Shown: piece by piece, positions 27,622 to 46,121 of the stretch
How the letters are laid out: each line of letters opens with the position of its first letter
Position numbering within the stretch: the stretch's first letter is position 1
DNA from: an uncultured virus (IMG/VR IMGVR_UViG_3300031566_000004)
Lineage: Duplodnaviria > Heunggongvirae > Uroviricota > Caudoviricetes
Strand: one strand, 5' to 3'
Length of the DNA stretch: 64,000 nt
IMG/VR virus record: IMGVR_UViG_3300031566_000004
Notes under the pieces: generated by a model
Seen by the model: only the letters and a program-made list of their open reading frames with translations
What the model was told of the DNA's origin: nothing
Database searches by the model: none
Program-made: the position numbers and the translations under genes

Positions 27622-28032
27622 TTATTCAAAATATTGCGTTACTAGTTGTTTAACTTTATCGTTATAATCAAGCGCGGTAGCATAATTTATTTTAGTTAAA
27701 AACTTATAATAATTACCCCCTTTATAGCGTTTATCTTGCCAACGCTTATAGTAAGCTATACTAAACACCCAATGATCGAATGAGATATATCCAGAACTTA
27801 TGCAATTATTTTCTGCATCTCTTTCTTTACATATAAAAAAACCAAATAAGTTATTATAATCTAAAGAACAATTTTCACATTCAAGATTACCTGTTTCTAA
27901 ATAAGCTTGAGCAGCAACTATTTTTGGATGTTTTATCTCATATGCTATACAAGCTTCATATACATTTTCTTTTGTTAATTCTAAGTTAAACCCCATTAAA
28001 ATAAATAATGGGGTTATAAGTAAATTTATCAT
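27622..28032 (-). CDS. GH73-like glucosaminidase (peptidoglycan hydrolase)
   Basis: AQAYLETG, NNLFG, YAT..DY motifs; hydrophobic N-terminus. Confidence 0.8.
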   Translation of the reverse strand: MINLLITPLFILMGFNLELTKENVYEACIAYEIKHPKIVAAQAYLETGNLECENCSLDYNNLFGFFICKERDAENNCISSGYISFDHWVFSIAYYKRWQDKRYKGGNYYKFLTKINYATALDYNDKVKQLVTQYFE

Positions 28033-28421
28033 TGTTTTTTATATTTAGCATTACAGAAATCATAATCTCCTTGAGCATAGTAAATAGCATTAAAAGACAA
28101 TCTAACTATAATAAAATCATTATTAATAATTTGAACATCACCTATTTGTTGTGCATTAATTCCTCCGGTTAGTTCATAAATTTTACCTGTAGCTATAGAA
28201 TAAGGGTAATTATTTATCGTTAGATCAATTGACCCTTCAGGTGTGATAGAAGTTATATAACCTTTCTGGATAAATGCAGTATTACCTGAACCATTTGTAG
28301 GAGAATAATCTTCATATATATTCCATATACCTGTCATAGAATTTGCTGTAGGTGTTACATCATCTTTGTCACATCCCATTAAAAATAGACTTACAATAAG
28401 TCCCACTATGTACTTTTTCAT
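28029..28421 (-). CDS. lipoprotein
   Basis: signal peptide MKK..LFLMG-C followed by DKDD. Confidence 0.75.
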   Translation of the reverse strand: MKKYIVGLIVSLFLMGCDKDDVTPTANSMTGIWNIYEDYSPTNGSGNTAFIQKGYITSITPEGSIDLTINNYPYSIATGKIYELTGGINAQQIGDVQIINNDFIIVRLSFNAIYYAQGDYDFCNAKYKKQ

Positions 28422-29995
28422 AATTTTAATTTTTCACTATTTAAACTTATTAATTCTGGTTCAAACGCTTGAACACTCTTTTTAAACATATAAACTCTCA
28501 TTGGAGAACCTCCTTTACTTAAGTAATGATAGATATTAACTAATTTTAGATCAGGCACAAGCCCACAAATATCATTAGGTATGTCTACATTCCTTATTTT
28601 GTCGTTCTCTCCTGAGAATGCACTTAAATCATCTCTAGCACCTAATAGTGTAATAGCAAGATAACCTTCTTGCTCTAAAAGATTTCTACTGGCAATAGAC
28701 GATATTGTATCTTTAACATATTGACTATAAACTCCACAAAAGTCTAACCACATATTAGTATAACTATTTGTAGATATTTTCAACATGTCTAGACAATCAG
28801 CTTTAATATAACTTATATTATGATTTACTGCTTGAACTAATCCTTTACTGTAAGTATGTTGATTTTTTTCAACACATACCATCTTAAGTCCGGGATTAAT
28901 CTTAAGCATGTCTAATTCAAATATAAAATTATCTGCAGGTAACGAAAGAATTCTGCTATTTCCATTTATATTTTGGTTAAAATAACTCATTACTATTTTT
29001 CTAGTAATGTCTTTTACATTACTTTCTTCATTAGTAAACGGTAAAATAACGTTATTAATTGGTTTGTCTTCTATACGCGCACTACTTACTTCTACTATTT
29101 TATTAGATGTTGCTTTATTAAGATTTTTAGTGTTTATTTTAGAATTCACTAAACCATCTTTTTTTAATTTACGTAGTTTACTACAAACACTATAATAAGT
29201 TCTTTTAGGGTATTTCTCTATAAAAACTTTTACAGCCTTTTTATCTGTTAAATTAGTCTCACATAATAGTTTTAAGTCTGCTACCTCTTCATTAGAATAA
29301 AAATGAAAATTATTAGATTTTGTGGGCTTAGTAACATTATTTTTTGCTTTTTTCAATTGTTTACAGTTAATTTTATTTTGTTTTTTTAAACTATTGACTT
29401 TAAACTTAACAGAAAAATAGCTTCTATTTGGATATTTTTTAACAAATTCTCGTATACCATCTGCTGATGTTTTATGATTTTCACATAATAAAATTAAATC
29501 GTTAATCTCTTGCTTAGAATAAGTTTGGTATTTAGATCTAATTTTAGAATGAACACTTTTTGCATATTTACTATATTTATGCGCATAACTATCTTTTGTT
29601 CTCCCTGGATATTTTGCATTAAATAACTTATATGATTCTCCAGAGTTTAACCCCTCACTGGCATGCTTTTCTATCATGGCAGTTTCATTACTTGTATAAC
29701 TATTTTTCATCTTATTCACTTTTTTGTTTAAGTATTCATCTTTTATTTCTTGGCATAAGCCGAATATTTTAGTACTATTACCGTTTAAATTTCTTAGTTT
29801 TATTTTGTATTTATATACTATGTGTTTATCAGCTTTATTTAATAGTTCTCTATTTACAAATCTATTTCTTATTTGACAAGCTTTGTAATCTGTGTCTAAA
29901 GTATGTCTAAGAAACATATTAGTAGTTATATCTTGATATGTAGGGTATAGCACTTCTATGATAGTATCTTCTATCAATCTTTGATTTTCAATCAT
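28418..29995 (-). CDS. three Myb/SANT-like repeats fused to a SAM-methyltransferase-like domain
   Basis: Y[ST]..E...F..KYP.R[ST]..S three times; ILSLPA, VCVEKN, MWLDFCG. Confidence 0.55.
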   Translation of the reverse strand: MIENQRLIEDTIIEVLYPTYQDITTNMFLRHTLDTDYKACQIRNRFVNRELLNKADKHIVYKYKIKLRNLNGNSTKIFGLCQEIKDEYLNKKVNKMKNSYTSNETAMIEKHASEGLNSGESYKLFNAKYPGRTKDSYAHKYSKYAKSVHSKIRSKYQTYSKQEINDLILLCENHKTSADGIREFVKKYPNRSYFSVKFKVNSLKKQNKINCKQLKKAKNNVTKPTKSNNFHFYSNEEVADLKLLCETNLTDKKAVKVFIEKYPKRTYYSVCSKLRKLKKDGLVNSKINTKNLNKATSNKIVEVSSARIEDKPINNVILPFTNEESNVKDITRKIVMSYFNQNINGNSRILSLPADNFIFELDMLKINPGLKMVCVEKNQHTYSKGLVQAVNHNISYIKADCLDMLKISTNSYTNMWLDFCGVYSQYVKDTISSIASRNLLEQEGYLAITLLGARDDLSAFSGENDKIRNVDIPNDICGLVPDLKLVNIYHYLSKGGSPMRVYMFKKSVQAFEPELISLNSEKLKL

Positions 29996-30551: not shown

Positions 30552-30704
30552 TTAATAAGGATTAAATAAAAGTTCATCATATTTATCAGAACCTTTTATG
30601 TAAAGAAAATATTGATATTTATAATGTTGTCTAGAATAATCATTAGGCTTATAGATTATTGAGCCCATGTAATTAATTTTAATAGTTATTCTTAGTATAT
30701 TCAT
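30552..30704 (-). CDS. orphan mini-protein family member (50 aa, MNILRI...FNPY)
   Basis: hand-translated; same termini as the 38-43 kb array. Confidence 0.65.
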   Translation of the reverse strand: MNILRITIKINYMGSIIYKPNDYSRQHYKYQYFLYIKGSDKYDELLFNPY

Positions 30705-31335: not shown

Positions 31336-31572
31336 TTAAAAAATTGATAATGTTTCTACACTTATTTTTTTCATTAATTTAAAGGATTCAAGAGCTTTAT
31401 GTCTTTGATTCTTTGTAATATTAGTACCACGAATAAGAGTGTTTGCGCTTGTTATTAAACTATCTTCTTCTACTAAAAGTTTGTCTCCAAAATTCATACT
31501 AACTGAATATTTAGTAGCGTATAAGATTTCTCCTTTTTCTATAAGTTCCCCTATTTTTATTTCTCTGTACAT
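31336..31572 (-). CDS. ExLxIF-tail protein
   Basis: ends VETLSIF. Confidence 0.7.
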   Translation of the reverse strand: MYREIKIGELIEKGEILYATKYSVSMNFGDKLLVEEDSLITSANTLIRGTNITKNQRHKALESFKLMKKISVETLSIF

Positions 31573-31575
31573 AAT

Positions 31576-31887
31576 CTAGAATATTTCTAATGTTTCTACA
31601 ATACTCATATTAATATCATGATATGGTATAAACTTCTTTGCTTTAACACATTGTTGAAACCATATTTTTTGTTCATGTGATGCTAGTTTACATGAGTCTA
31701 TTCCATCATACATATAACTATTACCACAGTTGAAGTTTCCCATAACCTTAGTAAAGTTTTTGTTATTATATGAAATATAAGAATCTATGATATCTTTACC
31801 ACTATAACGGACGGTACCTATGTAGGTTTTATTATCATTAAAATGAAATGTGTATATTTCACCTTCTTTTAAATCTTCTTTTTTCAT
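31576..31887 (-). CDS. ExLxIF-tail protein
   Basis: ends VETLEIF. Confidence 0.7.
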   Translation of the reverse strand: MKKEDLKEGEIYTFHFNDNKTYIGTVRYSGKDIIDSYISYNNKNFTKVMGNFNCGNSYMYDGIDSCKLASHEQKIWFQQCVKAKKFIPYHDINMSIVETLEIF

Positions 31888-31889
31888 AG

Positions 31890-32153
31890 TTAAAATATTT
31901 CTAGTGTTTCTATCTGTGAATAATTATTTAGATATTTTTCAAACGCATTTACTGATTTAAAGTGTATACCCCAAAAATTATCCCTACAATGAAAGGAAGC
32001 TTTATTGTTACAATAACCATAATAAGTACCGCTTCCATTATATGTTTTTTCCTTTAATACACCATAGAGTAAATTATCTAATTTTGTAAATTCATCTTGA
32101 CAAGAGCCGACGTATACACTAAAAGCTCCTAATTCTTTTATTTTTTGTTTCAT
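31890..32153 (-). CDS. ExLxIF-tail protein
   Basis: ends IETLEIF. Confidence 0.7.
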   Translation of the reverse strand: MKQKIKELGAFSVYVGSCQDEFTKLDNLLYGVLKEKTYNGSGTYYGYCNNKASFHCRDNFWGIHFKSVNAFEKYLNNYSQIETLEIF

Positions 32154-32162
32154 AATGTTATT

Positions 32163-32399
32163 TTAAAATATTTCAAGTAATTCTATTTTACGTATTTTAC
32201 ATAGCACAAAATTAGGATACCAATAGTGATTATTTAGTTTAATATCTTTATAGTCATGACTAATATTATGAATATCAATAATTTTATATTTTTTACCTAT
32301 TGAATTACTCATACTACTAATCCAAGAAGTGTCATATTCCTCATCTTCAGTAGGTTTACGTAAAACTATTACTTCATCACCTATGTTAAGCTCTTCCAT
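32163..32399 (-). CDS. ExLxIF-tail protein
   Basis: ends IELLEIF; apparent paralog of 37167-37394. Confidence 0.7.
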   Translation of the reverse strand: MEELNIGDEVIVLRKPTEDEEYDTSWISSMSNSIGKKYKIIDIHNISHDYKDIKLNNHYWYPNFVLCKIRKIELLEIF

Positions 32400-35719: not shown

Positions 35720-36380
35720 GTAATTCCTAATACGTGTGACCCTATTATTAGCACCGTCAACATTACTTGGTACGGTCACGTAGTTACTTCGGGTCTTTCG
35801 AGGTTTCTGTTAATTCCTAGGAACTTAATATGAGGTAAACCTTTACCTTAATCATATTTTTACAGCTTCACTATAACTACTTGCTGAGAACTCCCAATAG
35901 TGTGAATTATCCTTTCTTGCGATTAAATCCAAGAGCCTTATAATCATATTAAGATTATCTTCCTAATTCACTAAGCAACATATCTCATTTAGTATCACTG
36001 GCTAACAGTTATGTTCTCACCTTGCTAAACTTTAAAATTGTGAGACTCATTATACTAATACAGTTGCATCTATTCCTAATTGTAATTTTATAACAGGTTT
36101 AAACATATAGAGACTGGTAAACTCAAATTCTCGGTTTAAATACTGTATAACTTAATACACAGCCCTTACTTCTGGCGTGTCTTAACTGTTGTAGTTTCGT
36201 CCTTCCTATACTGCCATAATTACAATCTTTACCATTACTGGTAGGTTATCTTTGATTTATGTGAGATAAGGGTTTTGCTCACAACAACTTATACGTAGTT
36301 GCCAAACGTGTGTAATACAACACAATATTAATAGTATCAATACATTATAACACTTATTCTAACCTGATTAATTCCAGATG
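35720..36380 (-). ncRNA. candidate large structured ncRNA (~650 nt)
   Basis: ORF-free and dense in hairpins and long-range inverted repeats; strand inferred from context. Confidence 0.5.
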
Positions 36381-36985: not shown

Positions 36986-37166
36986 AATTTATAGTTTATT
37001 TAAACTCTTCTGGAATATGTTTATAGGTAATTTTTGCTTTAGCGTTTCTTTAAGTTCGTGCCATATTTCGGGTTCGTGTTCTTTTAAGCATTTCATTATT
37101 CTTATTGCAGTAGTTCCGTTTAACTGCATTTCACTTATTGTTATTTCTACTTTTTTACTCATAATT

Positions 37167-37394
37167 TTAAAATATATCTAGTTCTTCTATTATTGATGCT
37201 TTCTCCACTACTACACTTGGTATATAAAGACCAGTCTCTTTAAAACAAGGATTTCCATATGGACTAATATCCTGTACAGTCAAGGTTTTACCAATGTATC
37301 TGTCCATAGCTGGCATCCACTGGCAGCTACAACTACGTCCTTCAGAGTATGTTGCTCTTCTTGTTATAATTACTTTATCTCCTTTTTTTAACAT
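37167..37394 (-). CDS. ExLxIF-tail protein
   Basis: ends IEELDIF. Confidence 0.7.
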   Translation of the reverse strand: MLKKGDKVIITRRATYSEGRSCSCQWMPAMDRYIGKTLTVQDISPYGNPCFKETGLYIPSVVVEKASIIEELDIF

Positions 37395-37412
37395 AATAAG
37401 TTTTATTTAATT

Positions 37413-37706
37413 TTAAAATATGTCTAATTCTTGTATATTACTTGTAGTACCATAATTCTCACCAAAATATTCTTTTTCTGCTTTAAGAAATCTAATAACT
37501 TCAGAATTAGTCATTTCTCTTATAGGATAATTTCGATTAGGATCATATAATGCACTATCAACAATATAAGGTTTCTCTTCACCGTTTTTTAAATAAAATT
37601 TTTTAACAGGAACTACAGCGTCAGACTCATTTAAGTGAGAGTATCTAAAATAATAATCATGTATATATCCGTTTACCTTGTATAATTTATTTTTTACTAA
37701 TTCCAT
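37413..37706 (-). CDS. ExLxIF-tail protein
   Basis: ends IQELDIF. Confidence 0.7.
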   Translation of the reverse strand: MELVKNKLYKVNGYIHDYYFRYSHLNESDAVVPVKKFYLKNGEEKPYIVDSALYDPNRNYPIREMTNSEVIRFLKAEKEYFGENYGTTSNIQELDIF

Positions 37707-37745
37707 TGTTTATAATTTTAGTTTAAAATTTAGTTTTATTTTATA

Positions 37746-37826
37746 TAGTCGCAACAGCTAGATTCAAACTAGCCCTGTCATATTATTTAGACGTGTCAAC
37801 CTAACCCTTAAAGAGCTTTGTTGCGA
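37746..37826 (-). tRNA. tRNA-like element (degenerate)
   Basis: acceptor CGCAACA/TGTTGCG, T-arm GCTAG-TTTGAAT-CTAGC, D-like hairpin; no clear anticodon arm. Confidence 0.4.
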
Positions 37827-37876
37827 AATACTAGACTTTCCTATCTAGCAGCAGATCTTTGTCTGAGGTTTATTAT

Positions 37877-38044
37877 TTAAATAGATATGATTCTTGGGTT
37901 TTACTATAGGTTATTACCCTATGCCTGATGTCTTGCAAAACAGAGCAGGGCCCTCAACAGAGTATCACTGGTGGTCTCGGTGATCAAATCCGGGATTAAG
38001 TGATTCCTTTCAATATCCATTATATCTTCTGTATATCTATTTAA
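37877..38044. ncRNA. candidate structured RNA
   Basis: 12-bp closing stem TTAAATAGATAT/ATATCTATTTAA enclosing GC-richer hairpins. Confidence 0.4.
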
Positions 38045-38066
38045 TAAAGTCTTAAATTATGTGATG

Positions 38067-38204
38067 TTAATATAGTCTCATGGGTTTCATTCTAAATACT
38101 GTAGTCATAGGTCCTCCTGTAGTTACAAAAAAACCATAAGCATAAGGATCATAAAAATGCATACGTATATCTCTAGAGTATTTTCTTAATTTTAAATTTA
38201 TCAT
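38067..38204 (-). CDS. array mini-protein 45 aa MINLKL...MRLY
   Basis: hand-translated. Confidence 0.75.
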   Translation of the reverse strand: MINLKLRKYSRDIRMHFYDPYAYGFFVTTGGPMTTVFRMKPMRLY

Positions 38205-38215
38205 ATGTTATACGT

Positions 38216-38392
38216 TTAGTAAGGTCTTAACCCGGATAATTCCCCATGATATGCACTAGTACTATTACTAAATATTATAAAAACCGCTTGATGCCCGTAG
38301 TGATCTAATAATATGTCAGTATACTCGTCAACTCCGTATAACACTAAGTTTAAGGTTATCTCATCTTTTACAAAAAATTTTAAATTTATCAT
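38216..38392 (-). CDS. array mini-protein 58 aa MINLKF...LRPY
   Basis: hand-translated. Confidence 0.75.
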   Translation of the reverse strand: MINLKFFVKDEITLNLVLYGVDEYTDILLDHYGHQAVFIIFSNSTSAYHGELSGLRPY

Positions 38393-38403
38393 GTTAATTT
38401 AAT

Positions 38404-38514
38404 TTAATAGCATTGAACATACTTATTATATTCATAATCACTTTCTTCATATATAAGCCAAATAAGTGATTTTATAATAATTATGTCATCGTTGTCTATA
38501 TAAAATATTCTCAT
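38404..38514 (-). CDS. array mini-protein 36 aa MRIFYI...VQCY
   Basis: hand-translated. Confidence 0.6.
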   Translation of the reverse strand: MRIFYIDNDDIIIIKSLIWLIYEESDYEYNKYVQCY

Positions 38515-38515
38515 A

Positions 38516-38677
38516 TTAATAAGGTTTAAACATTTTTTGATTAAGTACACTTATATTTTTAAAGTAAACAAGCATAAAGTAACAATCGTATGAATAATTC
38601 ATAAGAGAAGATTGTTTGTAAATATTATTAAGTTTAATATATATAGAAGGTAGAGGATAAATGTACCTGTTAGTCAT
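38516..38677 (-). CDS. array mini-protein 53 aa MTNRYI...FKPY
   Basis: hand-translated. Confidence 0.7.
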   Translation of the reverse strand: MTNRYIYPLPSIYIKLNNIYKQSSLMNYSYDCYFMLVYFKNISVLNQKMFKPY

Positions 38678-38692
38678 GTTAAATTAGTTTTA

Positions 38693-38860
38693 TTATGAAT
38701 TAATACTATATAATCTTATGGCATTAACCACGATGTATTCATCCACTGTAAAATATGTTAAAAGGTATTTCCCGTTAAATAAGTCTATAGAAAAATTTGA
38801 AAAATCATCCAACCATATGTCTAATTTATTGTCAGACTTGTTTAATCGTATATTAATCAT
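38693..38860 (-). CDS. array mini-protein 55 aa MINIRL...IRLYSINS
   Basis: hand-translated. Confidence 0.7.
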   Translation of the reverse strand: MINIRLNKSDNKLDIWLDDFSNFSIDLFNGKYLLTYFTVDEYIVVNAIRLYSINS

Positions 38861-38883
38861 ATGTTTTTATTGTTTTTAAAAGC

Positions 38884-39030
38884 TTAGTATAAAGAGCTTC
38901 TATTTATAGTAATAGTCATTATTTTAAGGGCACTAAACCCACCATGATCCCAGTTTACTATAATATATTTATAGGCGTATATTACATTGAATGGTTGGTC
39001 TTCTATTATTTTAAATTCAAGATTAATCAT
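38884..39030 (-). CDS. array mini-protein 48 aa MINLEF...SSLY
   Basis: hand-translated. Confidence 0.75.
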   Translation of the reverse strand: MINLEFKIIEDQPFNVIYAYKYIIVNWDHGGFSALKIMTITINRSSLY

Positions 39031-39031
39031 G

Positions 39032-39196
39032 TTAATAAAGTTTTAAATACATTCTGCCGTTTAATTCATGATATTGATATAATCTGTTTATATAAAAAGC
39101 CATTATACGATGAGCCAGATAATCTTCAGGATATTTTATAGCGCTTACATAATAAGGTGATTTTATTTTTAGTTTTATATATGTATTTTTAGTCAT
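39032..39196 (-). CDS. array mini-protein 54 aa MTKNTYIKL...LKLY
   Basis: hand-translated. Confidence 0.75.
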   Translation of the reverse strand: MTKNTYIKLKIKSPYYVSAIKYPEDYLAHRIMAFYINRLYQYHELNGRMYLKLY

Positions 39197-39347
39197 ATAT
39201 TTTAAAATTTTTTATCATTAAATTATCTGCTATTGTTTCCTTGTCTTCTTCACTTATTTCTTCTATAAGGGTGTAAAAATTACTACAAGGTGTTATTATT
39301 CTTATATAGCGGGGTACTAAGTAAAATATTTTTATATAACTGCCCAT
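39189..39347 (-). CDS. array mini-protein 52 aa MGSYIKI...FKIYD
   Basis: hand-translated. Confidence 0.7.
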   Translation of the reverse strand: MGSYIKIFYLVPRYIRIITPCSNFYTLIEEISEEDKETIADNLMIKNFKIYD

Positions 39348-39358
39348 AATTAGTTGAG

Positions 39359-39499
39359 TTAATCGTAAAGTTCAAAGTTATCAATAGTAACTATGTAACG
39401 TTGTATATTACCATATACAAACTCCCCTTTTACGTACCATTTATAACCTTTATAAGTAAAATCATACACTAAAGTGTCTTCTATTATTAATTTTATCAT
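39359..39499 (-). CDS. array mini-protein 46 aa MIKLII...FELYD
   Basis: hand-translated. Confidence 0.75.
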   Translation of the reverse strand: MIKLIIEDTLVYDFTYKGYKWYVKGEFVYGNIQRYIVTIDNFELYD

Positions 39500-39501
39500 G
39501 T

Positions 39502-39648
39502 TTAATATAAGTTTATGGCTATGTATTCAAGATTATCATAGTTAAATCTAAAGAGCGACCCATTAAATAAATCATACCTACGATGATTTTCTATTGAATC
39601 ATATATGTCTATGTATTCGTTATGTATTACTATATCTAGTTTAATCAT
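39502..39648 (-). CDS. array mini-protein 48 aa MIKLDI...INLY
   Basis: hand-translated. Confidence 0.75.
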   Translation of the reverse strand: MIKLDIVIHNEYIDIYDSIENHRRYDLFNGSLFRFNYDNLEYIAINLY

Positions 39649-39650
39649 AA

Positions 39651-39803
39651 TTAGTATAATTTAGTATTAGTTTCTTTAAGTCTTCCTGTAAAGTATGTTC
39701 TAGCAATTTTACGAGTAATAAATACTCGTATACGGCTATTATAAATTTTGTCTGTTATTTTCCACCCATATTTCTCGCTGGATAACATCCTGATATTTAT
39801 CAT
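39651..39803 (-). CDS. array mini-protein 50 aa MINIRM...TKLY
   Basis: hand-translated. Confidence 0.75.
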   Translation of the reverse strand: MINIRMLSSEKYGWKITDKIYNSRIRVFITRKIARTYFTGRLKETNTKLY

Positions 39804-39812
39804 AATGTTTAG

Positions 39813-40022
39813 TTAGTAAGGTTTAAAAGAGTCAATGATTCCTTGGTTAGGTTTATATCCATTTATACAAGGTGTATACTCGAAAGTAATAGCATTATTC
39901 TCTTTAAACCCATAATTATAAACTATTGTTAGATAATTTATACTAAAAGGATTAGAATTATTATGTCTATTATGATTTCTCATTAGAGCTTTATTATATA
40001 TGTTTATCTTAAGTACATTCAT
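39813..40022 (-). CDS. array mini-protein 69 aa MNVLKI...FKPY
   Basis: ORF track. Confidence 0.75.
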   Translation of the reverse strand: MNVLKINIYNKALMRNHNRHNNSNPFSINYLTIVYNYGFKENNAITFEYTPCINGYKPNQGIIDSFKPY

Positions 40023-40033
40023 AATATTTAATT

Positions 40034-40174
40034 TTAGCTATATAATTTAAGCGATTTATTTGCATACTTAAAATAATAATTTTTATAAGACGTATAATAT
40101 CCTATTTTATTATCGTATATACTAATAGCAACACCAAAAGGTTCACGACAATGTATTCTAATGTAGTTTTTCAT
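40034..40174 (-). CDS. array mini-protein 46 aa MKNYIRI...LKLYS
   Basis: ORF track, start moved to the ATG 1 nt after the upstream stop. Confidence 0.7.
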   Translation of the reverse strand: MKNYIRIHCREPFGVAISIYDNKIGYYTSYKNYYFKYANKSLKLYS

Positions 40175-40175
40175 T

Positions 40176-40358
40176 TTAATATAGTTTAAGTAAACCCCGA
40201 TGATATATATCGTGTCTTTCATTATAAACAAAATAAATATTATTAACAATAATCATATGCATAGTAGGATCACCTAACCATTTATAATTAACAATATTTA
40301 AACACATATAACCATATACTATAGGACCTTCATCTTGTATTTCGAAGTTTAAATTCAT
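40176..40358 (-). CDS. array mini-protein 60 aa MNLNFEI...LKLY
   Basis: ORF track. Confidence 0.75.
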   Translation of the reverse strand: MNLNFEIQDEGPIVYGYMCLNIVNYKWLGDPTMHMIIVNNIYFVYNERHDIYHRGLLKLY

Positions 40359-40387
40359 AATTAAGTGAGATTTCTAGTTAATATTAT

Positions 40388-40498
40388 TTAGTATGGTTTA
40401 AGGTAAATTTTAATATATTTTGGGTCATTATTTCTCATATAAAACGTGATATTATCATTATATGTAAGACAGTTTATAATTATATATGAATTATTCAT
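40388..40498 (-). CDS. array mini-protein 36 aa MNNSYIII...LKPY
   Basis: hand-translated. Confidence 0.7.
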   Translation of the reverse strand: MNNSYIIINCLTYNDNITFYMRNNDPKYIKIYLKPY

Positions 40499-40664
40499 AA
40501 TATTTAATTTCTGGGTTTACTATATCATTACTATAATTATTGTTAATAAAGAAATGATGTCTAGGATAGTAAGCAGTTGTATGGTAAGTTACTACATGCA
40601 TAAGCGTGTACGCTATATGCTTTTCAAAACGATAGTTACCTATGTAGATTTTTATATAGCTCAT
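40491..40664 (-). CDS. array mini-protein 57 aa MSYIKI...IKYYE
   Basis: hand-translated. Confidence 0.7.
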   Translation of the reverse strand: MSYIKIYIGNYRFEKHIAYTLMHVVTYHTTAYYPRHHFFINNNYSNDIVNPEIKYYE

Positions 40665-40709
40665 GTTTGTTTATTTAAATGAAATTTTATAGATTCCCGG
40701 TTTACCCTA

Positions 40710-40895
40710 CTAGTAAAGATTAATCTTAGATACATCATATATACTTATAGGATTATAACAGTTATTTATCATACACATTATCTCATAATTATAATCTGTT
40801 ACCTCATAACTATAACCTGTATGATAACCTCTATTGATAGTGATATAATGACAAGAACGAATTTTAGTGCTTTTGCTGAATTTAATTTTATGCAT
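40710..40895 (-). CDS. array mini-protein 61 aa MHKIKF...INLY
   Basis: ORF track; paralog of 40941-41105. Confidence 0.75.
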   Translation of the reverse strand: MHKIKFSKSTKIRSCHYITINRGYHTGYSYEVTDYNYEIMCMINNCYNPISIYDVSKINLY

Positions 40896-40940
40896 AATAT
40901 AAGTTTTAGTGGTGGATGAATAATCCCGGTTTACTGTAGA

Positions 40941-41105
40941 CTAGTAAGGATTAACCTTAGATGCATAATATAAACTTCTAGTATCATAAGAGTAATTTAT
41001 AAAACATATTATATCATTAGTAAAATCAGGTCGAAAAGTTCTTCGAATAACAAGATAATGAGAAGAACGAAGACTAACGCTTTTTTTAATTTTAATTTTG
41101 TACAT
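40941..41105 (-). CDS. array mini-protein 54 aa MYKIKI...VNPY
   Basis: hand-translated. Confidence 0.75.
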   Translation of the reverse strand: MYKIKIKKSVSLRSSHYLVIRRTFRPDFTNDIICFINYSYDTRSLYYASKVNPY

Positions 41106-41148
41106 AGTATATATAAGTGTTAGTGGTGAGTAAATAATCCCGGTTTAT

Positions 41149-41301
41149 CTAATACTCAGAATAAAGCTTAGTATAAATAAACAGTGTATGATAGTTACGA
41201 TAGTCACTATGATAAGTTGTTAGACACATACGTATTCTGGTCTTTCTATTGATGACCATTATGCATAAGTAGTCATGTTTAGCTATATTAATACTTGTCA
41301 T
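41149..41301 (-). CDS. array mini-protein 50 aa MTSINI...TKLYSEY
   Basis: hand-translated. Confidence 0.7.
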   Translation of the reverse strand: MTSINIAKHDYLCIMVINRKTRIRMCLTTYHSDYRNYHTLFIYTKLYSEY

Positions 41302-41389
41302 AGTGAGTGGTTTTTAGAAAGAGTTTAAAGTGATGTTTTATGTAGGTGGTTTTCACGTGCAGTCTGCAACACCCATAAACACTAGGGTT

Positions 41390-41530
41390 TCATGAGTTTT
41401 CATTAGGAATATTATATAATCTAACAGGTATATTAAGTATACTCACATAGTAACCACCATATACGTCTAAATAACCTGAATAATGCGTATATGTCCCATA
41501 ATTATCAAAAAAAGTAATAAGTTTTATCAT
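41390..41530 (-). CDS. array mini-protein 46 aa MIKLIT...VRLYNIPNENS
   Basis: hand-translated. Confidence 0.7.
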   Translation of the reverse strand: MIKLITFFDNYGTYTHYSGYLDVYGGYYVSILNIPVRLYNIPNENS

Positions 41531-41618
41531 AATTTATCTGTTTTTAGCAGGTATTATACCCATATTTAACACTTGTTAAAAAATGAACACCGCATAAACA
41601 CTGGGCTGAGTCAACTTG

Positions 41619-41663
41619 TTACACACGGTGGAGACTCACATTTAGTGCTTTTATATTAATCAT
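41619..41663 (-). pseudogene. truncated array unit MINIKALNVSLHRV*
   Basis: family start followed by an early stop inside a TGAGTC/GACTCA inverted repeat. Confidence 0.5.
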
Positions 41664-41808
41664 ATGTATATAGTCTATGGTTACGTTTAGTATAATAATT
41701 ACGGTGATATGTTAAACATATTACTGTTATGAAGCTTATAGGCAAAGCTCCGTAAGTTAGATATACTTTTCCGCTGTATGTAATATCATGTATATTTATA
41801 TTCATCAT
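41656..41808 (-). CDS. array mini-protein 50 aa MMNINI...HRLYTYD
   Basis: hand-translated. Confidence 0.7.
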   Translation of the reverse strand: MMNINIHDITYSGKVYLTYGALPISFITVICLTYHRNYYTKRNHRLYTYD

Positions 41809-41809
41809 A

Positions 41810-41959
41810 TTAGTAAAGTTTTAAAGGGATGTACCCAGGTGTTACATATGTAATGTTTCTATAATTTAATCCATTATCTAGTTTAAGATCTAATAAAATA
41901 GTGGTAGTAAACCCAGAAAAAGGTAAACTCCTATAACTAATCAACTTTATATTTATCAT
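41810..41959 (-). CDS. array mini-protein 49 aa MINIKL...LKLY
   Basis: hand-translated. Confidence 0.78.
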   Translation of the reverse strand: MINIKLISYRSLPFSGFTTTILLDLKLDNGLNYRNITYVTPGYIPLKLY

Positions 41960-41964
41960 ATATT

Positions 41965-42141
41965 CTAGTATAAGTGAAGTTTAATTGGAGCATTAGGAAA
42001 TACAAAGATATATCTATAATTCACTTCCTTAGTACCAGTATAACTTTTTATTAGAAGTTCTAAATATATATCAAACCCTCTATAACTATCATGATTTTGT
42101 TTAAAATACCCTTCTAATACATTAGCTTTTATATTCATCAT
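41965..42141 (-). CDS. array mini-protein 58 aa MMNIKA...LHLY
   Basis: hand-translated. Confidence 0.78.
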   Translation of the reverse strand: MMNIKANVLEGYFKQNHDSYRGFDIYLELLIKSYTGTKEVNYRYIFVFPNAPIKLHLY

Positions 42142-42157
42142 AGTATTGTTTTATTTT

Positions 42158-42310
42158 TTAGTATAAGTGAAAAGGAACTGAAAAGTCACCAAATATATAT
42201 ATAGAATCTTCCCCATATATATCCCTATACTTGGCCATACACAGATCAAATGTTATACCCGTTATATTATCAAAATGCTGTCTATACAAATAAAATTCTA
42301 GTTTTATCAT
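42158..42310 (-). CDS. array mini-protein 50 aa MIKLEF...FHLY
   Basis: hand-translated. Confidence 0.78.
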   Translation of the reverse strand: MIKLEFYLYRQHFDNITGITFDLCMAKYRDIYGEDSIYIFGDFSVPFHLY

Positions 42311-42311
42311 A

Positions 42312-42455
42312 TTAGTACATATTAAATTTGTTAGTAGGTTTTATTGGCGCATCGTTGTAGTATGTAAATAATGATATCCCCATAATGGCGTTGCTCTCTA
42401 CATTAAGCCGGATCATCATACCCCATTTATGTGTCTCTGCTTTTATATTTATCAT
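42312..42455 (-). CDS. array mini-protein 47 aa MINIKA...FNMY
   Basis: hand-translated. Confidence 0.78.
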   Translation of the reverse strand: MINIKAETHKWGMMIRLNVESNAIMGISLFTYYNDAPIKPTNKFNMY

Positions 42456-42467
42456 AGTGTTGTTTGT

Positions 42468-42599
42468 TTAATATAGTTGTAACTTAATAGCACGTCTTGT
42501 TAAGTAGTATCTACTATAAAACGTATTTTCATAATAAATATCCATCTCTCTATACAAAGTATAATCACCATAATAAGTTTTAAATTTCAAATTTATCAT
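42468..42599 (-). CDS. array mini-protein 43 aa MINLKF...LQLY
   Basis: hand-translated. Confidence 0.78.
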   Translation of the reverse strand: MINLKFKTYYGDYTLYREMDIYYENTFYSRYYLTRRAIKLQLY

Positions 42600-42604
42600 A
42601 AGAG

Positions 42605-42730
42605 CTAATATAGTTTACGTCTGGTAAAAGTGCATATATGTTCATATTTTACAGGCATCTCAATAAGCCATGTAATCTCAGGATAATAGTTTAGACAATG
42701 GTTAAATCGATATGAGAGTAATTTTATCAT
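42605..42730 (-). CDS. array mini-protein 41 aa MIKLLS...RKLY
   Basis: hand-translated. Confidence 0.75.
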   Translation of the reverse strand: MIKLLSYRFNHCLNYYPEITWLIEMPVKYEHICTFTRRKLY

Positions 42731-42750
42731 AGTGTTATAGTTTAAATTTA

Positions 42751-42885
42751 TTACCAGTTTCTGTTATGGTCATATATACGATAATTATTTATGTTGCATA
42801 TAAAGATGGTTGTTACTTTACTATACGTTTGTCTATACATAACAAGATATGTTCTACCTGATGGGAACTTATAGTATTTTATCAT
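42751..42885 (-). CDS. array mini-protein 44 aa MIKYYK...YRIYDHNRNW (first unit)
   Basis: hand-translated. Confidence 0.65.
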   Translation of the reverse strand: MIKYYKFPSGRTYLVMYRQTYSKVTTIFICNINNYRIYDHNRNW

Positions 42886-43048
42886 AGTGTTTAATTATAT
42901 ATTATTCTTTCTGATGGTAGCCTCGCTTCGCTCGCCCGCCGCTATTTCACACCGCTATGTCTAGCATATATAAAGACCCTTCATCAAAAAAAAATAATAG
43001 CATAATACCCGAAGGCATTACACTATTATCTTCTAGAATAATCTTCTA

Positions 43049-43450
43049 CTACTCTTCTCCAGAGCTAGGTGCAACAGGGGCTGCTTTCACGGGAGCTTTA
43101 CCTCGAGCTTTAGCAAGCATTTCGTTAGCCAATTGGCTAGCAAGAGCATTTCCAAGAGCTGTTCCAGCGTGCTTTTCTAACAACTGGTTAACACGTCTTG
43201 TCTCAGTTTGGTCAATAATATAACCAATACCGTCTTTTTCAACAAACGTAATATCTACAGTGTCACCTTCATAGATACCATTGGCTTGCTTAGTAGCATA
43301 GAACAAAGGTTTTCCACTTTCTTCGTCCGCTCTAAAGTTTGCACCTTGGTGTGCCTCGTATGCAGATAATTCTGCTGGCGTTCCACTTAATTCAAAAACA
43401 CTAACAACATTCCCGTTTTTAGTGTACTCGTTCACTTTTCTACCTTTCAT
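43049..43450 (-). CDS. hypothetical early protein
   Basis: 133 aa, preceded by the repeated motif and followed by a hairpin plus T-run. Confidence 0.75.
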   Translation of the reverse strand: MKGRKVNEYTKNGNVVSVFELSGTPAELSAYEAHQGANFRADEESGKPLFYATKQANGIYEGDTVDITFVEKDGIGYIIDQTETRRVNQLLEKHAGTALGNALASQLANEMLAKARGKAPVKAAPVAPSSGEE

Positions 43451-43549
43451 AATAAAGATTTTTAAATAATAAATAAATAATTAATTTAAAATTAATGAGG
43501 GAAGTAGACTATCTTTATGAGAGTTATTGTATACAAACCCAAGATAATC

Positions 43550-43714
43550 TCAGGCTTGTATAACAATATATTTAGTTCTATCTGGTTGTCTAGAACTCAT
43601 TTCAGTATAAGCTTTGTCCATAGCCTCATACTTACTTCTTGCCATCTTTCTAACAGAGAGCTTTCCTCCGCTATCTAGTATGATGTTTACAATAAATGTT
43701 TTAAAGTCGCTCAT
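43550..43714 (-). CDS. small early protein (54 aa, MSDFKT...)
   Basis: hand-translated; downstream of a motif copy. Confidence 0.6.
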   Translation of the reverse strand: MSDFKTFIVNIILDSGGKLSVRKMARSKYEAMDKAYTEMSSRQPDRTKYIVIQA

Positions 43715-43886
43715 ATGCTTGTGTATTAGTTAGTATTAGTCAGAAAATTGTGCTACCCTCTACAGCTTATAGAGAGTAGCAGCATTTAACTAAATTAAAA
43801 TTAAATCAGTATTAGTGAGGGCTGTAGACTATCTTTAAGTACACTAAGTAAACCGCGAGAACTTTCCCACGGTTTACAACTATATA

Positions 43887-44135
43887 CTAAAACAATAGCT
43901 TTACTAGTATACCTTTAGCTACTCTAGATACAGGACTAACTAATCCTTGATATCTAATGGCTAAATATACTTGTTCTGTGATAACAGTATAACCTGGTTT
44001 ATAATCATCTACAGATAATATCTCTTCAGGTATACCATTAGCATTTAATACTCTAACGTGTGATTTACTCCTTGTATCACATCTTTCTAGAAGTCTCATT
44101 TGACCTTCTATTTTTGCTCTAACAAATGTGCTCAT
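43887..44135 (-). CDS. small early protein (MSTFVR...)
   Basis: ATG downstream of the motif copy at 44174. Confidence 0.6.
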   Translation of the reverse strand: MSTFVRAKIEGQMRLLERCDTRSKSHVRVLNANGIPEEILSVDDYKPGYTVITEQVYLAIRYQGLVSPVSRVAKGILVKLLF

Positions 44136-45798: not shown

Positions 45799-45960
45799 AT
45801 GATCAATATAAACATTATCACAACGCCTAGAACCTATAGACCTATAAATAAACACATCATACGGTTAAAGAACACTTGTCCTATTATTAAAAGGCGTCAT
45901 GCAGAATACATGAGAGAGATGGAAAATCTAGTAATGTACGGTAATAAAAATATATTATGA
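45799..45960 (+). CDS. MINI-start mini-protein (53 aa)
   Basis: MININIITTPRTYRP...LVMYGNKNIL; hand-translated. Confidence 0.55.
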   Translation: MININIITTPRTYRPINKHIIRLKNTCPIIKRRHAEYMREMENLVMYGNKNIL

Positions 45961-46121
45961 TAAATATCAGTATAAATATAAAACCTGAAACATACAAACC
46001 ACCTTTAATTTCTTCAGATTTATCAGCACAAATGTTAAAATATTATAATGACTTAGGTATTATGCCTATTGACACTACTAAATATTATAATCAAAAAAAA
46101 AATAATATAAACATTATATAA
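45957..46121 (+). CDS. MINI-start mini-protein (54 aa)
   Basis: MINISINIKPETYKP...; ATGA overlap with the previous ORF. Confidence 0.55.
   Translation: MINISINIKPETYKPPLISSDLSAQMLKYYNDLGIMPIDTTKYYNQKKNNINII

Follow-up and report, generated by a model that had tools for sequence, protein, structure and literature searches.

We analyzed a 64,000-nucleotide stretch of DNA from an uncultured virus of the Caudoviricetes (IMG/VR record IMGVR_UViG_3300031566_000004; the whole stretch is referred to as the window) and found that the apparent open reading frame (ORF) desert at positions 38067-42885 is a genuine protein-coding tandem array. It consists of 28 mini-genes on the minus strand, the products of which share both ends and differ in the middle. 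An original prediction, made from the sequence alone, had proposed here 28 minus-strand ORFs of 36 to 69 amino acids (aa), mostly less than 25 nt apart. Calling ORFs of at least 30 aa returned exactly this number, all ATG-initiated, 36 to 69 aa long (median 50) and covering 89.0% of the region, while on the plus strand 5 ORFs of this kind gave a coverage of 14%. When 38067-42885 was shuffled 500 times with its dinucleotides preserved, the number of ORFs of this size was 4.8 ± 2.0 (maximum 11, versus 28 observed) and the coverage 0.12 ± 0.05 (maximum 0.26, versus 0.89 observed). The terminal motifs behaved in the same way: 14 members start with MI[NK][ILY] (0.05 in shuffles, maximum 1), 20 have a final Tyr (0.47 in shuffles, maximum 4), and 22 carry [LP]Y among their last few residues (0.49 in shuffles, maximum 4). 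Neither the tiling nor the terminal motifs, which the prediction had proposed to compare with shuffled sequence, were thus reproduced. Elsewhere in the window, each 4.8-kb segment contained 0 to 2 such starts and 0 to 3 such ends.

The predicted close packing was also found: of the 27 junctions, 19 are gaps of 1 to 23 nt and 2 are overlaps of 8 nt, so that 21 stay below 25 nt; the 6 remaining gaps, of 29 to 125 nt, are all central (40359-41655). The ORFs occupy all three frames, neighbors lie in differing frames, and the stop codons are TAA (22), TAG (5), and TGA (1). Because a random codon is a stop in 9.1% of cases at the base composition of the array, open frames of 50 codons are not expected without selection. 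The start context of the 28 ORFs resembles that of 53 other genes of the window, with A at positions -13/-12/-11 in fractions of 0.79/0.75/0.64 (0.72/0.70/0.62 in the other genes), A at -3 in 0.82 (0.72), and T at -1 in 0.79 (0.55). No Shine-Dalgarno-like G run was present at the array starts or at those of the 53 other genes. These results show that the ORFs are coding and selected for openness, and we consider it very likely that they form a real, fast-evolving coding family. The members, numbered m01 to m28 along the direction of transcription, and a dispersed relative are as follows:

38067..42885, minus strand: whole tandem array of 28 mini-genes, delimited by ORF calls, shuffles, and gaps
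42751..42885, minus strand: m01, 44 aa, MIKY start, ...YRIY followed by a 6-residue extension
42605..42730, minus strand: m02, 41 aa, MIKL...RKLY
42468..42599, minus strand: m03, 43 aa, MINLK...LQLY
42312..42455, minus strand: m04, 47 aa, MINIK...FNMY
42158..42310, minus strand: m05, 50 aa, MIKLE...FHLY
41965..42141, minus strand: m06, 58 aa, MMNIK...LHLY
41810..41959, minus strand: m07, 49 aa, MINIK...LKLY
41656..41808, minus strand: m08, 50 aa, MMNIN...RLY plus 3 residues
41390..41530, minus strand: m09, 46 aa, MIKL...VRLY plus 7 residues, the sole TGA stop
41149..41301, minus strand: m10, 50 aa, MTSINI...TKLY plus 3 residues
40941..41105, minus strand: m11, 54 aa, MYKIKI...VNPY, recent duplicate of m12 (33 bits on middles)
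40710..40895, minus strand: m12, 61 aa, MHKIKF...INLY, duplicate of m11 (33 bits on middles)
40491..40664, minus strand: m13, 57 aa, MSYIKI...IKYYE, 8-nt overlap with m14
40388..40498, minus strand: m14, 36 aa, MNNSYIII...LKPY
40176..40358, minus strand: m15, 60 aa, MNLNFEI...LKLY
40034..40174, minus strand: m16, 46 aa, MKNYIRI...LKLYS, ATG at 40174
39813..40022, minus strand: m17, 69 aa, MNVLKINI...FKPY
39651..39803, minus strand: m18, 50 aa, MINIR...TKLY
39502..39648, minus strand: m19, 48 aa, MIKLD...INLY
39359..39499, minus strand: m20, 46 aa, MIKLI...FELYD
39189..39347, minus strand: m21, 52 aa, MGSYIKI...FKIYD, 8-nt overlap with m22
39032..39196, minus strand: m22, 54 aa, MTKNTYIKL...LKLY
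38884..39030, minus strand: m23, 48 aa, MINLE...SSLY
38693..38860, minus strand: m24, 55 aa, MINIR...IRLY plus 4 residues
38516..38677, minus strand: m25, 53 aa, MTNRYIY...FKPY
38404..38514, minus strand: m26, 36 aa from the ATG, MRIFYID...VQCY
38216..38392, minus strand: m27, 58 aa, MINLK...LRPY
38067..38204, minus strand: m28, 45 aa, MINLK...MRLY, last member; LY end kept with no array gene after it
30552..30704, minus strand: 29th member, dispersed (7.4 kb downstream), 50 aa, MNILRITIKI...FNPY

All 28 predicted ORFs were recovered, and only the start of m16 was moved: the ATG at 40174 (46 aa) is preferred over an upstream ATG at 40222, which would give 62 aa and overlap m15.

The members were recognized as one family by their termini. 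When the 28 array proteins and the product of 30552-30704 were aligned on the conserved Tyr, this residue (position -1) was present in 29 of 29 sequences, preceded at -2 by Leu (18) or Pro (6), at -3 by Lys (12), Arg (6), Asn (5), Gln (2), or His (2), and at -4 by Leu (8), Phe (7), Ile (4), or Val (3). These last four residues are the best-conserved part of the proteins. The C-terminal module often contains an Asn turn followed by hydrophobic-[KRN]-[LP]-Tyr, either at the very carboxyl end or close to it, and the N-terminal motif is M-I-[NK]-[IL]-x-hydrophobic or a Y-I-K-I variant; the conserved ends span only approximately 5 residues each. This agrees with the earlier claims that about half of the members start with MI[NK][IL] or MMNI (14 of 28 start with MI[NK][ILY]), that nearly all end in, or a few residues after, hydrophobic-x-[LP]-Y, and that conserved termini enclose hypervariable middles. 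The LY end is kept in members that precede gaps of 43 to 125 nt and in m28, which indicates that it is not a by-product of the start region of the next gene. Two plus-strand ORFs at the divergence point described below (45799-45960 and 45957-46121) also start with MINI and have no LY end.

The information content at the starts and at the conserved Tyr has a 3-nt period. In codons 2 to 6, positions 1 and 2 carry 0.15 to 0.83 bits and third positions 0.04 to 0.25 bits, and the Leu/Pro codon preceding Tyr carries 0.96, 0.72, and 0.19 bits by codon position. Synonymous codons are intermixed at the termini (CTA/TTA/CTT, CCT/CCA, TAT/TAC, and ATA/ATT). The conserved ends are thus a protein-level feature. 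This bears on the proposal that the region is non-coding, either as a DNA or RNA repeat (promoter/terminator cassettes, iterons, or an RNA array) or as fragments read under another code. Conserved sequence does recur at the unit junctions, similar to T4-type promoter-terminator cassettes as presented in the portions of the reports consulted (PMC2839356, PMC4122927), and the available text on Cellulophaga phage phi14:2 mentions highly transcribed "non-coding" stretches in its early region (10.1101/2020.03.07.982082). However, the 3-nt periodicity with silent third positions, the 21 of 27 junctions below 25 nt, which leave no room for a cassette, and the restriction of DNA repeats to the junction codons and the m11/m12 pair largely refute this proposal, which we regard as very improbable.

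Several specific candidates were examined and rejected separately. The "long non-coding" early region of phi14:2 does not hide a homologous array, as there is no ORF tiling in it. A long gene with reassigned stop codons does not fit the region either, because 22 of the 28 stops are TAA and the frames alternate, so that no known reassignment merges the ORFs. ARAGORN found 0 tRNA genes, and Rfam gave 0 matches at gathering score within the array and only Y_RNA (E 0.52) in an E-value search. Promoter/stem-loop (PeSL) cassettes were rejected on account of the 21 of 27 gaps below 25 nt, the codon-periodic conservation, and the lack of an internal hairpin, and an obvious precursor locus for ribosomally synthesized and post-translationally modified peptides (RiPPs) was discarded since no modifying enzyme was detected among the 61 neighboring ORFs scanned.

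In the middles, defined as the members minus 6 residues at each end, hardly any similarity was detected. An all-versus-all BLASTP comparison against 20 shuffles left a single pair above the shuffles, m11 (40941-41105) and m12 (40710-40895), with 33 bits, and the mean score was 13.4 bits versus 12.4 bits in the shuffles. Leave-one-out profiles placed 7 of the 28 full-length members in the top 5 when ranked with 100 shuffles, but did so for only 1 of the 28 middles. The m11/m12 pair has a dN/dS of about 1.5 over 54 codons, and repeats at the DNA level are found only at the junction codons and in this pair. The middles are nevertheless rich in Tyr, at 13.5% compared with 7.2% expected from the bases and with 5.1% to 5.3% in the rest of the window's proteins (5.1% in its large ORFs); they also have more Asp, Gly, Pro, and Thr, and less Leu, Lys, Gln, and Ser. 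The middles had been described earlier as Tyr/Ile-rich and not alignable by eye, and both the Tyr enrichment and the lack of alignability are upheld by these data. Together, the Tyr excess and the strict C-terminal Tyr indicate that the product, and not just its translation, is selected. A search of the ESM Atlas gave a best score of 0.87, below lead level.

We also examined variation among strains, which in the protein collection and in public soil sequencing runs differ by approximately 4% to 9% in DNA over the array. Variants were looked up for 22 members by exact sequence; 6 of these had an allele in a 90% cluster, and an allele of m23 was found by direct search. The 8 variant alleles, which belong to 7 members, contain no stop and have lengths equal to those of the window except for one with an extra codon. 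They differ at 1 to 7 residues, or at approximately 14 of 48 in m23, with 0 differences within the first 4 or last 4 residues. The m05 allele P0026 has 7 differences, none of them in the first 4 or last 4 residues, the m22 allele P0006 has 4, two m20 alleles have 2 each, and the single alleles of m25, m26, and m27 have 1, 3, and 1, respectively, all at equal length. The m23 allele P0030 (49 aa) is 71% identical to the window protein, and its first 5 and last 13 residues are unchanged. Preservation of the reading frame in related strains, which the prediction had put forward as a check, was therefore observed together with preservation of both ends. In strain variants, m06 carries a 12-nt in-frame insertion at 42028-42029.

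Contigs of four runs were compared with positions 37000-44000, and the best-supported 40 of 444 differences were listed. Among these 40, the 18 located in the array ORFs comprise 16 nonsynonymous and 2 synonymous changes, whereas the 14 in the upstream gene 43049-43450 comprise 3 nonsynonymous and 11 synonymous ones (Fisher p = 1.9e-4). In m08, 10 of the 11 listed substitutions are nonsynonymous. The neutral expectation of the nonsynonymous-to-synonymous (N:S) ratio for array codons is 2.8 to 3.9. The middles evolve fast, at or above the neutral rate. Two strain joints, one at 41636/41653 with 160 other letters between and one from 39020 to 39587, hint at gain or loss of units, both on low-depth contigs placed at 80% likeness.

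Judged by its marker genes, the genomic setting is that of a crAss-like (Crassvirales-type) soil phage of approximately 119 kb. The PHROG hits of the window include TerL (5.7e-57), portal (1.7e-78), and DNA polymerase (1.6e-132), the latter of family B (PolB), in addition to primase, helicases, and an HNH endonuclease. With TerL, tblastn matched 147 phage records, all below 60% identity (best 24%), which are named after Bacteroides, Flavobacterium, Cellulophaga, crAssphage, and IAS, and about 600 relatives of the portal, approximately 60% identical to it, were found in IMG/VR. The longest contig carrying the proteins of this phage in the protein collection has 119,092 bases, and the window is identical to two abutting viral records (1-28736 and 28759-64000). 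The marker hits, the open frames, and the shared start context agree with the earlier view that the array consists of real phage-encoded genes.

Genes are on the minus strand up to approximately 45.7 kb and on the plus strand from approximately 45.8 kb. The array lies on the leftward strand, 3 to 8 kb from the divergence point near 45.7 to 46 kb, within an 18-kb block of small orphan genes located between the replication genes and this point. On the same strand, 3.1 kb downstream, there is a homologue of phi14:2 g004 (35% identity, E 4e-25), a gene located toward the left end of that phage. According to the part of the phi14:2 study consulted, the g004-g006 region gives the earliest transcripts in infection, made by the virion RNA polymerase (10.1101/2020.03.07.982082). 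By this synteny, the array is probably in an early-expressed block, a position that fits host takeover without demonstrating it.

Upstream of the array, the region 42880-43050 has a minimum free energy of -48 kcal/mol (z -4.2) and contains the following feature:

42990..43033, minus strand: terminator-like hairpin of 20 pairs with a T run behind it, separating the gene 43049-43450 from the array

The location of this hairpin suggests that the array starts its own transcription unit. Within the array itself, the coding strand contained no further hairpin of the terminator type. A sigma-70-type promoter scan gave 93 matches, not above the 77 ± 11 of shuffles, and the Bacteroidetes-type promoter pattern (TTTG, 17 to 23 nt, TAnnTTTG) occurred 0 times in the window versus 5.0 ± 2.0 expected. 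One mark of the anti-defense role that the prediction had considered plausible would be an adjacent aca-type regulator; among the 61 neighboring ORFs scanned, no helix-turn-helix regulator was detected next to the array.

Several other elements were observed around and within the array. A GC-rich patch (approximately 42920-42965) lies next to the hairpin in a genome of 28% GC. The motif TAAACCGGGAWT has exactly 3 copies on the minus strand (40693-40704, 40922-40933, and 41136-41147), located just past the stops of m12, m11, and m10 in gaps of 43 to 45 nt; a fourth match with 1 mismatch is found at 36127, which makes 4 versus 0.32 expected at up to 1 mismatch. A pair of related, GC-richer elements occupies 41368-41383 and 41587-41602, in the gaps of 88 and 125 nt. 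These gap elements and the TAAACCGGGAWT copies could represent promoters inside the array or what is left of units that were lost. Right after m28, positions 37899-37959 (minus strand) match the Rfam freshwater-1 small RNA motif over model positions 1-62 of 62, with 50.3 bits (E 1.7e-8 over the window), under the gathering score of 72. This match overlaps a probably spurious 33-aa ORF (37919-38020), and no publication on the motif turned up in the literature searched.

Homology searches returned no relatives outside this phage. With a threshold of E ≤ 0.01, PHROGs and Pfam gave no match to any of the 28 members (best values 0.021 and 0.094, respectively), and NCBIfam and PADLOC gave none to any of 34 sequences. 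A profile search of 1.84 billion representatives gave 0 matches at E ≤ 0.001; since the family profile is weak and gives its own best member only 37 bits, this null is weak evidence. In a word-index search of 5.8 billion clusters, 7 of 39 candidates matched, all to the phage's own proteins or a strain allele, and the DNA of 38000-43000 had no match in 50,697 phage records. A junction-pattern scan of IMG/VR produced at least 116 single, chance-like matches and an array in 0 of the 80 loci examined, a metagenome scan with allele P0006 yielded none that was confirmed, and the flanking genes 43049-43450 and 37413-37706 were found in IMG/VR only on the window's own contig. The family thus appears so far to be confined, as far as these sequence collections go, to one uncultured soil phage lineage.

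The family profile also had 0 matches in five related viral records, two of which are at least 98% complete: one of 118 kb with terminal repeats (100% complete) and one of 115 kb (98% complete). The portal proteins of these two complete relatives are about 60% identical to that of the window. Both have approximately 20 kb less between their replication and structural blocks, and the syntenic place is taken by ordinary genes. The syntenic arrays that the prediction had suggested looking for in related phages were therefore not found in either complete relative. In one of them (G002), the early region includes two tRNA genes (L082 17145-17428), and the window has none. No literature description of a comparably sized family recognizable only by its termini was found. 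The earlier remark that no described system was recognized here still stands, with no match in the libraries, searches, and literature used.

The reading that we tentatively prefer, with somewhat less than even confidence, is that the array encodes a diversified host-interaction set with a shared terminal module. The family has expanded through tandem duplication, with m11 and m12 as the youngest visible pair. Selection holds each ORF open at about 36 to 69 codons and preserves the short N-terminal motif and the C-terminal module, while the Tyr-rich middle of approximately 35 residues is replaced through substitutions and in-frame indels at or above neutral speed. The products would be early small proteins acting on host components, in which the conserved ends form a common module, either closing a small protein or docking on one shared partner, and the variable Tyr-rich middles give differing specificities. 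A host arms race would maintain the array as such a set.

A number of observations weigh against this reading. The 16:2 ratio is not significantly above the neutral 2.8 to 3.9, so that relaxed constraint fits the middles as well as diversifying selection does, and 11 of the 18 array substitutions among the best 40 of 444 differences come from m08 on one contig. The GC content by codon position is flat in the array (0.289/0.257/0.222) compared with that of large ORFs (0.402/0.315/0.172). The middles show neither a strand-like (lag 2, z 0.76) nor a helix-like (lag 3 to 4) hydrophobic periodicity, and the order of their residues therefore looks random. AlphaFold2 with paralogue alignments predicted almost no secondary structure, with a predicted local distance difference test (pLDDT) score of 52 for m18 and 50 for m20. 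In the MI[NK] members, the residues at positions 5 and -3 tend to have like rather than opposite charge, which gives no support to a salt-bridged pairing of the ends. Absence of the family from the two complete relatives indicates that its function is not general to the group. Finally, no RNA dataset is among the 5 matching sequencing runs listed.

Some of these observations would be expected if the sequence of the middles were irrelevant, which we consider unlikely. The peptides would then be substrates, precursors, or decoys known by their ends, for instance RiPP-like precursors or decoys that occupy a host protease or a Tyr-directed enzyme, or it would be the translation itself that matters. 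Middles that are random in order and unalignable, AlphaFold2 models without a fold (pLDDT 52 and 50), and an N:S ratio at or above neutral are consistent with this, as are the tight coupling of the ORFs and the fact that only the ends, the length, and the Tyr content look selected. However, a Pfam scan of the 61 neighboring ORFs revealed neither a transporter nor an enzyme for peptide modification (radical SAM, YcaO, lanthipeptide, cyclase, or peptidase), the proteins have no signal peptide or long leader, and their conserved ends are only approximately 5 residues each. A relay based on translation, moreover, has no need of a C-terminal Tyr or of a twofold Tyr content.

The preferred reading must also be weighed against a young gene accordion, in which one small gene was amplified and its copies now drift close to neutrality, most of them having little or no present function. 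Restriction of the family to one lineage, the two strain joints that hint at unit gain or loss, an N:S ratio near neutral, many residues near the expectation from base composition, and flat codon-position GC are what such a process would give. Nevertheless, with 9.1% stops per random codon and 3.5% to 6.1% of substitutions creating a stop, copies left to drift would soon be broken. All 28 members are open, however, none of the 8 variant alleles has acquired a stop, and the m23 allele has kept its frame and both ends despite an approximately 29% amino acid change and an indel. The paralogues have also diverged past recognition with their ends fixed. We therefore judge the accordion to be improbable.

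Conservation of the last four residues above all others raises the question of whether the tail, hydrophobic-x-[LP]-Tyr-COOH, acts as a short linear motif that docks on a hub such as the sliding clamp or an AAA+ protease, at which the mini-proteins would act as adaptors, competitors, or decoys. The products of a second set of 6 small tandem genes in the same block have nothing in common beyond their tail, E-[TL]-L-[EDS]-I-F-COOH; their bodies are dissimilar and have no Pfam or PHROG hit:

31336..31572, minus strand: second-tail gene 1, E-[TL]-L-[EDS]-I-F-COOH
31576..31887, minus strand: second-tail gene 2, same tail
31890..32153, minus strand: second-tail gene 3, same tail
32163..32399, minus strand: second-tail gene 4, same tail
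37167..37394, minus strand: second-tail gene 5, same tail, kept by a strain allele that is 93% identical
37413..37706, minus strand: second-tail gene 6, same tail

With this second tail family on dissimilar bodies, portable C-terminal tails are a recurring theme in the phage. The two tails follow one pattern, hydrophobic-x-hydrophobic-aromatic-COOH, which resembles the clamp-binding consensus, in bacteria the pentapeptide QL[SD]LF. The resemblance of the array tail, hydrophobic-[KRN]-[LP]-Tyr, to clamp-binding motif proteins is only partial: it lacks the Gln, has a basic residue in place of the Ser or Asp of the consensus, and terminates in Tyr. The scanned ORFs revealed no gene for a clamp, 28 different binders for one pocket are hard to rationalize, and docking through the tail leaves the conserved N-terminus unexplained. 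Hub docking is thus, in our judgment, quite unlikely. As a long shot, the mini-proteins could be a set of approximately 29 adaptors or decoys whose two ends together dock on one machine, be it a host protease, the clamp, another hub, or a phage protein, and whose Tyr-rich middles capture different host proteins; the E-[TL]-L-[EDS]-I-F-COOH tails would then be a parallel set for another hub.

Known systems resemble the array in part. The T4 internal-protein locus encodes late, virion-associated proteins with a shared N-terminal capsid-targeting sequence that is cleaved by the prohead protease. As in that locus, polymorphic small proteins have only short terminal signals in common; in contrast, the array is conserved at both ends, its location points to early genes, and there was no sign of a link to a protease. 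In RiPP precursor arrays such as those of prochlorosins and cyanobactins, conserved recognition sequences flank hypervariable, tolerant cores, and the array likewise consists of many small tandem genes with conserved flanks around hypervariable cores, but it has no nearby modifying enzyme, its conserved parts are approximately 5 residues, and it lies in a phage early region. In gene accordions under arms-race selection, for example those of poxviruses, a host-interaction gene is amplified in tandem and its copies then diverge rapidly. Their copies stay alignable, whereas in the array only one pair can be aligned and all members are open.

The closest likeness is to blocks of short orphan genes in crAss-like phages, suspected of counter-defense roles in the text consulted (PMC7886860), which occur in the same phage group and also consist of short genes without homologues outside close relatives. 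Those blocks are described there as made of unrelated genes, whereas the array contains 28 to 29 genes that form one family by their termini, strictly head-to-tail and mostly below the usual annotation cut-offs. Like the T4-type hyperplastic regions with PeSL elements, as far as the relevant passages describe them (PMC2839356, PMC4122927), the array combines small novel ORFs with conserved boundaries and turnover among strains; unlike the intergenic promoter and stem-loop, which are conserved at the DNA level, its conservation lies inside the ORFs and at the amino acid level. On sequence grounds, the array seems to belong with the small-gene families of phage hyperplastic regions, and a terminus-only family of such size appears to be new to the literature searched.

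Two further observations were made in the leftward block. A 525-aa orphan protein encoded at 28418-29995 (minus strand) contains three internal KYP-x-R-[ST] repeats and has no Pfam or PHROG hit. At 27622-28421 (minus strand), a glucosaminidase-domain protein (PF01832, E 6e-11) adjoins a small protein with a lipoprotein-like start, and the two look like a probable lysis pair.

Short orphan phage genes are dropped by annotation pipelines and are poorly understood in their evolution and role, and the array warns that an apparent ORF desert in an AT-rich phage can be densely coding. Purifying selection that keeps ORFs intact and a few terminal residues fixed, with near-neutral or positive turnover between them, has seldom been documented so clearly in phages, and there is a small chance that a set with constant ends and a free middle represents a new principle. 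If the middles are irrelevant, the array would be a case of a sequence-independent role of a peptide or of its translation early in infection. If the ends are a docking or closure module, they would offer a natural template for minimal binder scaffolds, and hidden families could be found through common termini rather than bodies. The set of approximately 29 adaptors, if true, would be a natural counterpart to synthetic binder libraries or to adaptors for targeted degradation, with duplication and near-neutral sequence turnover as the means of its renewal.

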